DNA of 64,000 nt from an uncultured Bacilli bacterium. GTDB lineage: Bacteria; Bacillota_I; Bacilli_A; RF39; UBA660. Of this stretch, positions 22,841 to 33,975 are shown piece after piece (position 1 is the stretch's first letter; each line of letters opens with the position of its first letter). The stretch is taken from the NCBI GenBank assembly GCA_934086955.1, contig CAKOIN010000003.1:71271-135270 (forward strand), read 5' to 3'. Under the pieces are notes generated by a model that saw only the letters and a program-made list of their open reading frames with translations, made no database searches and was not told the DNA's origin. Position numbers and translations under genes: made by a program.

Positions 22841-24715
22841 ATGAATAAGAAAGGATTTACATTAGTAGAGTTACTTGCTGTTATAGCAATATTAGGTTTG
22901 ATTGTTACTACTGTTAGTATAGCTGTTACTAAGATTTATAATGATAATATTAAGAAAACAATGATAGTTCAGGAGAATAATATTGCTAGTGCATCAAGAA
23001 ATTATCTTGATGATTATTGTTTTTCTCCACTTGATGGTAACTATATTTGTCCTAAATCATATGATAATACTACTGATAATAAGTATATTTGTTTAAGTGA
23101 TTTACAAGAAAATGAAAAAGACAATTATATAAATAAGGTAACTTATAAAAATGAAGATTGTAAAGGTATAATAGTTTTTACTAAAGATGATGAGGGTGGA
23201 TATACTAAACCAACTACATATTTATATTGTGATTATGATAAAAATAAAAACACATATAATTATGTGACTGACACATCATTAGATGTATCAAAATATCCAA
23301 GGTGTAATATAAGTGGTGGTGTAAGTGGTGAAGATGAAACAACAACAACTACAACTACTACAACTACAACAAAACCTGTTGATACTGCTTGTACTTATAA
23401 CGGAGAACTGGTGAAAGGTGCTGAATTTGTAAGTGGGCAATATACATATAGATACAAGCAAGAGGGTACTTATAGAGATCCTTATTGGAGTGATATTTCT
23501 CAAGATGGATGGGGAGTACAATTAACTGATAAAGATAGCACAGAAGCTGTTACTGATAATATATGTACATATATAAATAATAAACCTATAATTTCTATGG
23601 CATATATGTTTTATGATAGCAAAGCTTCTGCTATAAATGTAAGTAAATTTAATACTAGTAATGTAATTAATATGAATTCTATGTTTGGCGGTATTTCTGC
23701 AACAGTGATAGATTTAAGTAATTTTGATACTAGCAATGTAACTAATATGATGGCTATGTTTGAAAGAGGTAAAATCTCAACATTAGATTTAAGTAGTTTT
23801 GATACAAGTAAAGTAACTAATATGAGAGGTATGTTCCTTATGAATTCTATTAACACTTTAGATTTAAGTGGTTTTGATACTAGCAAAGTTACAGATATGT
23901 CGTTAATGTTTTATTGGAATTCGTCAAAAGTAATAAATATAAGTAATTTTGATACTAGTAGTGTTACTAATATGAGTCATATGTTTGAAAATAGTGCAGT
24001 AACTTCTTTGAATTTTAGTAGTTTTAATACAAGCAATGTCACTGATATGTCTGGTATGTTTGAAAACAGTAAAATAAGTAATATAAATTTAAGTAGTTTC
24101 AATACAAGTAAAGTAACTACTATGATTAACATGTTTAAAAATAGTGCAGCAACAGTAATAAATGTAAGTAGCTTTGATACTGGCAATGTAACAAATATGG
24201 TTAATATGTTTAGTAGTATTAAAGCAACAACACTAAATTTAAGCAACTTTAATACTAGCAAAGTTACTGATATGAGTGGTATGTTTGGTAGTAGTGCATT
24301 GACTTCGTTAGATTTAAGTAAATTTGATACAAGTAAGGTTACTGATATGAATAGTATGTTTGCATACAGTAAAATAAGTAATATAAATTTAAGTAGTTTT
24401 AATACCAGTAATGTAAAAGATATGAGTTATATGTTTAATGGAAGTAATGCTGAAACAATAAATTTAAGAAGTTTTAACACTAGTAAAGTAACTAATATGT
24501 GGAGTATGTTTAATAATTGTACTAATCTTAAAACAATATATGCTAGTACTAATTTTAATACTTCTAATGTTCCTGATAGGGATGAAATGTTTACTGATTC
24601 AACAAAACTAGTTGGTGGTAATGGTACGACATATGATAGGTTTTATACTGATAAAACATATGCTCGTATTGATAGGGGCAGGAAAAATCCTGGATACTTT
24701 ACTGGTGGAAAATAG
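22841..24715 (+). CDS. giant type IV pilin-like protein: prepilin class III signal + Cys-rich pilin-like domain + poly-Thr linker + about 13 DUF285-type repeats
   Basis: MNKKG|FTLVELLAVIAILGLIVT (G-1, F+1, E+5) is a canonical prepilin N-methylation site. A roughly 160-aa domain with 8 Cys follows, then ETTTTTTTTTTTK, then tandem repeats (LDLSxFDTSxVTNMxxMF). C-terminus ...NPGYFTGGK. Confidence 0.8.
   Translation: MNKKGFTLVELLAVIAILGLIVTTVSIAVTKIYNDNIKKTMIVQENNIASASRNYLDDYCFSPLDGNYICPKSYDNTTDNKYICLSDLQENEKDNYINKVTYKNEDCKGIIVFTKDDEGGYTKPTTYLYCDYDKNKNTYNYVTDTSLDVSKYPRCNISGGVSGEDETTTTTTTTTTTKPVDTACTYNGELVKGAEFVSGQYTYRYKQEGTYRDPYWSDISQDGWGVQLTDKDSTEAVTDNICTYINNKPIISMAYMFYDSKASAINVSKFNTSNVINMNSMFGGISATVIDLSNFDTSNVTNMMAMFERGKISTLDLSSFDTSKVTNMRGMFLMNSINTLDLSGFDTSKVTDMSLMFYWNSSKVINISNFDTSSVTNMSHMFENSAVTSLNFSSFNTSNVTDMSGMFENSKISNINLSSFNTSKVTTMINMFKNSAATVINVSSFDTGNVTNMVNMFSSIKATTLNLSNFNTSKVTDMSGMFGSSALTSLDLSKFDTSKVTDMNSMFAYSKISNINLSSFNTSNVKDMSYMFNGSNAETINLRSFNTSKVTNMWSMFNNCTNLKTIYASTNFNTSNVPDRDEMFTDSTKLVGGNGTTYDRFYTDKTYARIDRGRKNPGYFTGGK
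23590..24600 (+). repeat. tandem array of roughly 75-78 bp coding repeats (DUF285-type units) within the pilin-like gene
   Basis: Recurring ttt(g/a)atac(t/a)agcaa(t/a)gt(a/t)actaatatg... units encoding FDTSNVTNMSxMF. Confidence 0.75.
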
Positions 24716-24734
24716 GTTATAATAAGAATGAGTT

Positions 24735-24768
24735 TAACAAATGTTAAACTTTTCTTTATTTAGGATAC
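24735..24768 (+). terminator. rho-independent terminator
   Basis: agtttaaca-aat-gttaaact hairpin followed by tttctttattt. Confidence 0.55.
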
Positions 24769-24800
24769 AAAATATAGTAAAATAATTAAAGGGTGAGGAT

Positions 24801-32643: not shown

Positions 32644-33144
32644 ATGAAAAATGATGTTATAGAGGCTGTTATAGAGATACCTTATAGAAGCCGAAACAAA
32701 TTTGAAATTAAAGATGGTAAAGTTAAACTTGATAGAGTTTTATATAGTGCTATGGGTTACCCTGCTGAATATGGTTTTATAGATAAAACATTAGCAAATG
32801 ATGGTGATCCTCTTGATATTCTTGTTATTGGAACAGAACCAACATATCCAGGATGTATTATTCCAGCAAGAGTAATAGGTGTATTAAAAATAATTGATAA
32901 TGGTTTTGAAGATTATAAAATTATATCAGTTGTAGATGTTGATCCAAGATATGATGAAATTAAGGAACTTAATGATTTATCTAAGTTTATATTAGATGAA
33001 ATAAGAAACTTTTTTGAAAATTATAAAGTTCTTCAAAAAATAAATGTTCAAGTTGAAAAATATTATCCTAAGAATAAAGCTTTGAAAATTATTGAACAAT
33101 CTAAAAAGAATTATTTAAATACTATTAATGAAAGAAATGATTAA
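32644..33144 (+). CDS. ppa: inorganic pyrophosphatase (family I)
   Basis: EIPYRSRNKFE...DGDPLDILV motifs. Start moved to ATG 32644 (RBS taggagag); the track model 32572 adds an implausible N-terminus. Confidence 0.8.
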   Translation: MKNDVIEAVIEIPYRSRNKFEIKDGKVKLDRVLYSAMGYPAEYGFIDKTLANDGDPLDILVIGTEPTYPGCIIPARVIGVLKIIDNGFEDYKIISVVDVDPRYDEIKELNDLSKFILDEIRNFFENYKVLQKINVQVEKYYPKNKALKIIEQSKKNYLNTINERND

Positions 33145-33637
33145 TTTGAATAGAAAAGGATTTACATTGATTGAATTACTTGCTGTAATAGCAATATTAG
33201 GTTTACTTGTAACAACAGTTAGTATAGCTGTTACTAAGATTTATAATGATAATGTTAATAAAACAATGATAGTTCAAAATAATAAAGTTATGGAGGCAGC
33301 TAGTATATATTTAAATGATAAGTGTCTTTTACCACTTGATGGAGCTGTTTGCCCTGATTCTTATACTGAAGGCCAATATATATGCTTAGAAGATTTGACT
33401 GAAAATGTTAAAGAAAATTATTTAACTGAAGTAACATATAAAAATGATGTATGTAGTGGTATAGTTGTTTTTGAAAAAAATGCTGAGGGTGAAAATGTTG
33501 AAACTGTTTCATATTTATTTTGTGGATATGATAGTTCAAAAAATACATTTAATTATGCGACTAATCCATCATTGAATTTAAGTAAATATCCAAGATGTAA
33601 TGTTAAAAAGAATGGTTCACCAAGTGGTGGTGTGTGA
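33128..33637 (+). CDS. short type IV pilin-like protein (paralog of the N-domain of the giant proteins); possibly a truncated remnant
   Basis: NRKG|FTLIELLAVIAILGLLVTTVSIAVTKIYNDN... is about 60% identical to the N-domain of 22841. Ends ...SPSGGV* exactly where the paralog has SGGVSGEDETTTT. Confidence 0.7.
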   Translation: MKEMINLNRKGFTLIELLAVIAILGLLVTTVSIAVTKIYNDNVNKTMIVQNNKVMEAASIYLNDKCLLPLDGAVCPDSYTEGQYICLEDLTENVKENYLTEVTYKNDVCSGIVVFEKNAEGENVETVSYLFCGYDSSKNTFNYATNPSLNLSKYPRCNVKKNGSPSGGV

Positions 33638-33714
33638 CTACTACAACAACTAGAAAAACTCCAAATATACCTGATAATTGTACTGTTTAAGCTAAAAATG
33701 ATAATTATCATTTA

Positions 33715-33975
33715 ATGTATTGTGTTTCTGATGGTACTGGAGATAGTGTGGTTGGCAAAGAAAAGTCTATTGGAATTTGTAATAATGTTTCTTATTGTGT
33801 GTATGCCGTTAATGCATCATCTGATAGCAAAGCTCAATACATACTTTACTATAATAATAATGGAACTTCGGATGGTTATGATTTGGTTAGTGCTGTTTCA
33901 AATAAAATTATTACTACTTGTGGTTTAGTTGATCTTGGTTATAATATTGTATGTAAAACTATATCTGCATCATAG
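33715..33975 (+). CDS. hypothetical small Cys-containing protein (may be a relic of the downstream part of a degraded paralog)
   Basis: 86-aa ORF in the same frame as the poly-Thr relic (33637-33690). No DUF285 repeats. Confidence 0.3.
   Translation: MYCVSDGTGDSVVGKEKSIGICNNVSYCVYAVNASSDSKAQYILYYNNNGTSDGYDLVSAVSNKIITTCGLVDLGYNIVCKTISAS

Follow-up and report, generated by a model that had tools for sequence, protein, structure and literature searches.

Probable modular type IV pilins, two of them joined to DUF285 repeat arrays, in an uncultured gut Bacilli bacterium

Three prepilin genes and their shared pilin module

We analyzed a 64-kb stretch of DNA from an uncultured Bacilli bacterium, referred to here as the window (the whole 64-kb stretch), that contains three related genes, all on the + strand, whose products are most likely modular type IV pilins, that is, proteins in which a pilin module carries an extra surface module. 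Gene 1 (22841..24715) encodes a protein of 624 amino acids (aa) and gene 2 (29729..32566) one of 945 aa, or 950 aa if read from a GTG at 29714. Gene 3 (33128..33637) encodes 169 aa that make up a pilin module alone and that NCBI lists as 162 aa, read from a TTG at 33149. The three open reading frames (ORFs) lie where an earlier note on this DNA had placed them, as confirmed by the ORF list; that note had also spoken of 'giant' adhesins, a description that proteins of 624 and 945 aa do not bear out. The L-numbers and P-numbers used below denote the compared loci and compared proteins of this analysis, respectively.

A six-frame scan of the 64 kb for the prepilin motif returned exactly three sites, which are the starts of genes 1, 2 and 3: MNKKG/FTLVELLAVIAILG in gene 1 (leader at 22841-22855), MKKRG/FTLVELLAVVAILG in gene 2 and NRKG/FTLIELLAVIAILG at the end of the gene 3 leader. 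The leaders are short, basic and hydrophilic and end in Gly; the residues that follow the cleavage site, FTLVE in genes 1 and 2 and FTLIE in gene 3, place a Glu at +5 in the hydrophobic alpha-1N helix of about 21 residues. The class III prepilin signal claimed from the letters alone scored above the curated cut-offs of two models in all three genes. PF07963 (N_methyl), a model of 27 positions only, for which scores of 28-33 bits are modest, gave 27.9, 29.3 and 32.7 bits for genes 1, 2 and 3 against a cut-off of 21.2; TIGR02532 gave 27.0, 30.0 and 31.6 bits against 16.3. The residues G-1, F+1, T+2, L+3 and E+5 were invariant in all 14 of the aligned family members. Gene 3 is already annotated at NCBI (MCI7083862.1) as 'MAG: prepilin-type N-terminal cleavage/methylation domain-containing protein [Tenericutes / Mycoplasmatota bacterium]', MAG standing for metagenome-assembled genome.

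The N-terminal domains of the three proteins align over about 160 residues, with 60% and 44% identity to gene 3, and the pilin modules, each of about 150 aa, have six (nearly) invariant Cys in common, in agreement with the shared Cys-rich domain that had been proposed. The module occupies aa 6-155 of gene 1 (22856-23305) and extends to about aa 160 in gene 2. AlphaFold (AF2) models of the module suggest a pilin-like helix plus a sheet, and the gene 3 model reached a predicted local distance difference test (pLDDT) score of 80.9; a Foldseek comparison of the module with the PDB gave nothing significant. We then used a profile of the globular part, omitting alpha-1N, against 1.84 billion representatives and recovered 151 proteins at E <=0.001. 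The globular module starts at residue 38-44 in every one of these 151 representatives, right behind alpha-1N. Among the 150 best representatives, the G/F..E motif lies within the first 45 residues in 144 and Phe+1 is present in 142; leaders are mostly 4-6 aa long, and the exceptions to the motif are mostly N-terminal fragments. Since the search yielded only 151 representatives and the signal is kept in 144 of 150, the pilin module is a small, clade-restricted family in which the class III signal, including Glu+5, is strongly constrained.

These results bear on the explanation that the N-termini are ordinary Sec signals or signal anchors that match a short hidden Markov model (HMM) by chance. 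The small number of model positions and the size of the scores speak for such an accident. However, G/F-T-L-x-E stands at a fixed distance from the start in all three paralogues and in 144 of 150 relatives, and the prepilin motif occurs at these three sites only in the 64 kb. The leaders have 4-6 residues, whereas a Sec signal would show an n-region and an AXA site past the hydrophobic core. We regard a chance match as very improbable.

Surface modules, gene decay and cassette exchange

The second module is a DUF285/PARCEL solenoid resembling leucine-rich repeats (LRR) in genes 1 and 2, and a small Cys-rich domain, now cut off, in gene 3. In gene 1 the pilin module is followed by a Thr-rich linker (aa 156-183; 23306-23389), a beta N-cap (aa 184-257; 23390-23611) and a DUF285/PARCEL array of 13 repeats (about 23612-24610), behind which comes a short KTYARID..PGYFT tail. 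In gene 2, the pilin module passes at the junction YCHFDGDL (about 30248) into a DUF285 array of about 22 repeats. The HMM check upheld both the DUF285 assignment and the repeat counts of 13 and about 22 given in the earlier note: PF03382 scored 231.9 bits in gene 1 and 519.7 bits in gene 2 against a cut-off of 25, and TIGR02167, the PARCEL repeat of NCBI, scored 269.1 and 365.5 bits against 30, with 13 and 22 stretches. Tandem Repeats Finder reported a period of 75 nucleotides (nt), in gene 1 over 23632-24511; the repeat unit therefore has mostly 25 residues and not the 26 that had been counted. No lipobox was found in genes 1 and 2, their N-terminus being of the prepilin type, and the lipoprotein model NF045896 (Mbov_0838) scored 114.5 and 210.6, respectively, against a cut-off of 500.

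The full-length AF2 model of gene 1 (mean pLDDT 81) follows the same order, from the pilin module through a disordered Thr-rich linker and the beta N-cap to the solenoid, with pLDDT below 50 at linker residues 159-176 and above 90 in the solenoid. Foldseek matched this model in the PDB to LRR ectodomains (TLR7/8/9) alone, and weakly (E 0.09-1). The definition of modular pilins goes back to Raynaud et al. 2021 (PMC8179133), whose InterPro survey yielded 1219 such proteins in 264 architectures; genes 1 and 2 are modular pilins by that definition, combining N_methyl with a linker and a non-pilus DUF285 domain. Both arrays also contain antisense ORFs of 91-94 aa on the - strand (23611-23886, 23977-24261, 31105-31380 and 31621-31905), which on a qualitative check consist of reiterated LVTLLVSKLLK-type units. 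They correspond to the open frame expected from the dyad symmetry of PARCEL DNA and are probably not genes.

Comparison of gene 3 with its 90% cluster revealed intact proteins of 294-301 aa from other strains (P0290, P0291, P0294). In these alleles a Thr-rich linker joins the pilin module to a Cys-rich domain, and the reading frame stays open across the stretch that corresponds to 33626-33975. In the window, this 3' part of the gene (33626..33975, + strand) is decayed: a frameshift in GGTGGTGTGTG (33626-33637) is accompanied by a shortened Thr-rich linker, by an in-frame TAA at 33688-33690 where the intact alleles code for Lys, and by an ORF of 86 aa (33715-33975) that represents the former Cys-rich C-terminal domain. 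We considered the 86-aa ORF as an independent gene and rejected it, as it equals the C-terminal domain of the intact allele. Because the intact alleles read through the stretch that is broken in the window, gene 3 is the truncated remnant of a modular pilin and not a primary stand-alone pilin. The view of gene 3 as a pilin-size paralogue thus stands as far as the pilin module is concerned, which is present, and falls with regard to the protein as a whole, which is the N-terminal part of a broken 294-301-aa modular pilin. The truncated form is the common allele, with 227 contigs compared to at most 6 for the intact forms. The exact gene 3 protein was present on many human-gut metagenome contigs with identical gene order, and its 162-aa version occurred in 441 blocks of the metagenome collection, on contigs of up to 622 kb.

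The best homologue of the gene 1 repeat region was P0153 (L107:6001-7857). From the junction to the stop, the two genes have a DUF285 cassette in common (23417..24702 in the window, + strand), which aligns with L107:6562-7850 over 1292 bp at 94.5% DNA identity, whereas repeats within one array are only about 70% identical. The N-terminal 190 aa of P0153 are unrelated and non-pilin, with a transmembrane helix followed by NHRAAEMYIGELKYS, and the gene is located between PAP2 and der, unlike gene 1. We rejected the possibility that gene 1 and P0153 are alleles of one locus because P0153 sits elsewhere, in the PAP2-der interval. P0153 turned up in samples from the same set of studies, a hint that it may belong to the species of the window. 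When gene 1 was compared with its 120 best homologue clusters, 69 started with the prepilin motif, so that the pilin-DUF285 fusion is common in gut metagenomes, and nearly all the others had one of two further N-terminal types, both TasA/camelysin (SipW-type)-like. Nearly all DUF285 proteins of the clade have one of three N-terminal carrier types, prepilin and two TasA/camelysin-like. Taken together, the comparisons suggest that recombination transfers the DUF285 cassette from one carrier to another and that exchange between carrier types has been recent.

Such mobility raises the possibility that the genes are silent or decaying PARCEL cassettes, kept as reservoirs for recombination or antigenic variation and unexpressed as functional proteins. 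According to a proposal by Roske et al. 2010 (PMC2996958), certain PARCEL ORFs serve as variant reservoirs. Gene 3 is demonstrably decayed with the truncated allele the commonest, and the gene 1 array is 94.5% identical to a paralogue. Furthermore, in a comparison of five near-identical strains the array of gene 1 diverges by about 1.3% compared to 0-0.04% for polA, about 30 times the polA divergence (1.3% vs 0.04%), a comparison in which trxB also reaches 1%. Genes 1 and 2 nevertheless remain long and intact although an AT-rich genome yields stop codons easily, and six independent assemblies contain both of them unbroken. In five other assemblies gene 2 is 99.96-100% identical, and it is flanked by a sigma-70-type promoter, TTGACA-17 nt-TATAAT (29661..29689, + strand), about 40 nt upstream, and by a terminator-like hairpin (32561..32581, + strand) that overlaps its stop codon. 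The promoter, described in the earlier note as a perfect consensus, is indeed the sole 12/12 match in 22600-34100; promoter-like matches overall are no commoner than in shuffles. Gene 1 has a good ribosome-binding site (AGAGGTG). We therefore consider a purely silent role of the arrays improbable.

The pilin module itself also occurs with cargo other than DUF285. A length of 280 aa or more is reached by 40 of the 150 representatives, and 37 of these 40 contain N_methyl. Their further Pfam domains comprise Flg_new (9 members), DUF285 (8), Gly_rich_2 (4), Flagellin_N (3), two each of LRR_5, Dockerin and DUF6273, and one each of Invasin_D3, Big_1, Cohesin and others. The Flagellin_N match in three long members (alignment A4, P0308-P0445; best E 4e-14) joins a pilin to a flagellin-like helical region, a combination that was unexpected. 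More large proteins with prepilin starts were found at MAG loci of other low-GC gut Bacilli, such as a pilin with a BspA-type LRR between pnp and ftsK (L016), a pilin with RCC1-like repeats between proS and thrS (L057) and, in a Hadza Bacilli MAG (L069:1306-12050; CAKPHH010000006.1), a tandem run of five genes that encode about 675 aa apiece and all begin with a prepilin motif. The pilin module, which is joined to many different surface modules within the clade, would be an exchangeable carrier.

Gene neighbourhood, pilus machinery and proposed function

The neighbours of genes 1-3 are murJ-like, polA, tmcAL, a hydrolase gene, rpmF, ppa, a holin-like gene, lgt and trxB, so the interleaving with polA, tmcAL, rpmF, ppa and lgt pointed out previously holds. 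The three genes are orphans amid housekeeping genes with no pilus operon nearby, and the same is true in relatives. The nearest species representative among the matches listed was Clostridium sp. CAG:524 (L010), which is syntenic and has 53% identity. At the position of gene 3 it encodes a 758-aa protein with pilin, DUF285 and DUF6273 (from an ATG at L010:10031), and its syntenic site has no counterpart of gene 2. Just ahead of this intact pilin-DUF285-DUF6273 gene, L010:8974-9957 encodes 327 aa in which the first ~50 residues of the pilin family (signal and alpha-1) run into KTYARIDGG..PGYFT, the usual end of DUF285 arrays, and then into another domain; it looks like a recombination or deletion product. 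The relatives L006 and L007 have an orphan pilin of the family of genes 1-3 in the asnS/lysS-to-polC interval, where the window has the ORF 6906-8828 (see below).

We think it rather likely that the proteins are adhesin-bearing minor subunits of a type IV filament, probably located at its tip, with the solenoid as the adhesin; the earlier note had proposed a tip or pilin-anchored adhesin, which is the standard interpretation of modular pilins. The precursor would insert into the membrane via alpha-1N. A prepilin peptidase of the PilD/ComC type, encoded elsewhere in the genome, would then cut the leader of 4-10 residues and may methylate Phe1. The type IV filament machinery would pull the subunit from the membrane, making it a minor subunit of a short pilus or pseudopilus reaching across the wall. 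Since its bulk would keep the module from packing in the shaft, a position at the tip is the most likely, and the repeat solenoid could there serve as an adhesin for host or microbial ligands.

Several results weigh against assembly into a filament. Neither Pfam scans of the ORFs of 100 aa or more nor phmmer searches for which PilB, PilT, PilC and PilD served as queries revealed a PilB, PilC, PilD, PilM/N/O, ComG, assembly ATPase or major pilin in the 64-kb window. The equivalog HMMs for ComGC, ComGD, ComGE, ComGF and GspG-K remained far from their cut-offs (ComGC 15.5 vs 75, ComGD 21.6 vs 70, GspG 25 vs 88.85) and matched the N-terminal helix alone. No assembly ATPase was adjacent to the pilC-pilD pairs of relatives at the loci examined, and the contigs with machinery genes have no sample or contig in common with the species of the window, so that none can be linked to the window genome.

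The pairs in question consist of pilC (T2SSF, 462-580 aa) and pilD (A24) and were found in related low-GC contigs (L057, L090-L103, L092/L093 and L110-L113), for example at L057:920-3103, L090:7728-9888, L092:8251-10759 and L110:6571-8762. They lie amid housekeeping genes, often by dnaI or after addBA-yqfQ. PilD of L057 used as a query gave 5478 homologues, and the ones examined (P0051, P0271, P0068 and P0050) are all in pilC-pilD pairs among housekeeping genes. The tetranucleotide distance of the pilC-pilD contigs to the window was 0.017-0.027, compared to 0.009-0.011 for the relatives CAG:524 (L010) and L006. A PilB-like ATPase was found in L087 (Erysipelotrichia), in one locus with four tandem pilins. 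Other PilB/PilD candidates were rejected: the 731-aa ORF of L016 is FtsK, and the ORFs of L033 and L034 are TrpRS.

The orphan placement of the genes far from pilus operons, here and in relatives, and the pilC-pilD pairs that have no adjacent ATPase at the relatives' loci examined, would also suit a pilin-type membrane anchor that enters no filament. The class III signal, cleaved or uncleaved, would in that case leave alpha-1N as a tether, the linker would span the wall, and the solenoid would lie on the surface, resembling the archaeal sugar-binding proteins of the bindosome, a precedent in which class III signals are also used (PMC3047682). The linker is predicted to be long and disordered, as such an arrangement would have it, and DUF285 arrays of the clade are also joined to other N-terminal signal or anchor modules. 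On the other hand, an invariant Glu+5 and a conserved globular domain of 120 aa with six Cys, kept in 144-150 representatives, would be superfluous for a plain anchor. In known type IV pilin systems, Glu+5 matters for filament assembly and not for membrane anchoring. The organism also has other routes of anchoring, with two lgt genes and a sortase-type substrate with an NPQTG motif (6906-8828, see below). We view the plain anchor as possible, although clearly less likely than the filament subunit.

The window has a G+C content of about 25% throughout. Apart from genes 1-3, all Pfam-matched ORFs of at least 100 aa are housekeeping genes, among them aspS, a second class II aminoacyl-tRNA synthetase gene, polC, alr, murJ-like, polA, tmcAL, ppa, two lgt, trxB, ruvAB, rnc, smc, def, queA, tgt and metK; nine ORFs of at least 100 aa have no Pfam match. 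One of the nine, 6906-8828 (+ strand, 640 aa), starts with a Sec-type signal (MEKVKKLIFTLVISVLVIVPVITNA) and ends with the NPQTG motif, a hydrophobic segment and a basic tail, and looks like a sortase-anchored surface protein. The two lgt paralogues (34476-35288 and 42392-43075, + strand) are less than 8 kb apart, the first being directly 3' of the pilin genes and the holin-like (PF04020) gene. A PD-(D/E)XK (PDDEXK_2, Rpn-type) transposase-like gene is located at 16999-17838 (+ strand) between polC and a metallo-beta-lactamase-fold gene, with distant copies (30% identity) in L094 and L097. An S-adenosylmethionine (SAM) riboswitch (RF00162, 61.6 bits) lies at 58335-58419 (+ strand), 5' of metK (58591-59532). 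Upstream of aspS, at 2611-2657, a stretch of 34-48 nt recurs with 91-97% identity in front of aminoacyl-tRNA synthetase genes at other loci (L092:13911-13958 and L057:11755-11797, thrS; L094:20551-20583, a class I synthetase). This may be the conserved core of a T-box leader; the Rfam gathering score was not reached.

Relation to known systems and biological meaning

Genes 1-3 belong to a kind of protein that is already known: the N_methyl-DUF285 architecture has been catalogued, NCBI annotates gene 3 as prepilin-type, and no new category is needed. The fusion of pilin and DUF285 had been thought undescribed; in addition to the 69 of 120 best clusters that have it, Dataset S1 of PMC8179133 contains 22 proteins in total with combinations of IPR012902 and IPR005046, the latter being DUF285 (PMC2996958), and 27 with combinations of IPR012902 and IPR026906 (BspA-type LRR). 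DUF285 pilins were discussed in no text that we found, and a full-text literature search for DUF285 together with pilin gave nothing relevant, just two Lactococcus papers on other matters. What is new is that gene 3 has decayed, that a small carrier family holds many cargo modules, that DUF285 cassettes, as the sequences suggest, have recently been exchanged between carrier types, and that the genes consistently stand as orphans amid housekeeping genes.

The closest parallels are PilB (vWA module) and PilC (lectin module) of Streptococcus sanguinis, which likewise have a class III signal, a small pilin module, a short linker and a bulky, putative ligand-binding module that is not pilus-specific, in a monoderm host whose genome encodes several pilins of this sort. 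The pilB and pilC genes of S. sanguinis sit in the pil locus beside machinery genes, whereas the genes described here are orphaned amid housekeeping genes. They also differ in their cargo, a solenoid of 13-22 repeat units and no single globular domain, and DUF285 pilins are known from sequence alone; PilB of S. sanguinis is a modular pilin subunit and adhesin (PMC8179133). The extra domains of the large minor pilins found at the tip in Gram-negative systems (enterotoxigenic Escherichia coli CofB, GspK and Thermus ComZ) are, in contrast, system-specific and encoded within pilus or type II secretion system operons, and these proteins have no sequence similarity to genes 1-3 past alpha-1N.

With regard to the repeats, genes 1 and 2 resemble DUF285/PARCEL proteins such as M. 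mycoides LppQ, the NCBI 'BspA family leucine-rich repeat surface protein' and L. lactis AJ89_07570 in their PF03382/TIGR02167 units of about 25 residues. They share open antisense frames and strain-variable recombining arrays with DUF285 proteins of Mollicutes and Firmicutes, and like these they are predicted surface proteins with a putative part in adhesion. The lipobox of the Mycoplasma DUF285 lipoproteins is absent from genes 1 and 2, which begin with a prepilin signal. In Lactococcus lactis IBB477 a protein with DUF285 contributes to adhesion, and the mutant shows an adhesion defect (PMC5071367); the functional evidence for DUF285 is indirect and comes from this mutant and from variable surface lipoproteins of mycoplasmas (PMC2996958). 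As in the Sulfolobus bindosome (PMC3047682), a prepilin-type signal would place non-pilin domains on the surface, from dispersed genes. The bindosome proteins, however, come from archaea, require PibD and Bas and lack a globular pilin domain, whereas a complete pilin module is kept here.

A broader and speculative reading, which we hold to be rather doubtful, is that the prepilin signal and the clade-specific pilin module form a general surface-display system in small-genome low-GC gut Bacilli (the Tenericutes/Mycoplasmatota of NCBI). The adhesin modules displayed would number dozens and have no relation to each other (DUF285, BspA-type LRR, Flg_new, RCC1-like, dockerin, invasin-like), their genes being scattered singly among housekeeping genes, and a minimal pilC-pilD cassette would take the place of a pilus operon. 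The system would be a bacterial counterpart of the bindosome or a pilus that swaps its tip adhesins, with DUF285 cassettes moving between pilin and TasA/camelysin-like carriers.

The species occurs widely in metagenomes of the human gut. If the proteins are displayed on filaments, the modular pilins would probably be among its main adhesins and antigens. The genes would also provide a natural example for the concept of modular pilins, in which one small carrier family holds many cargos and cargo appears to have been exchanged recently between carrier types.

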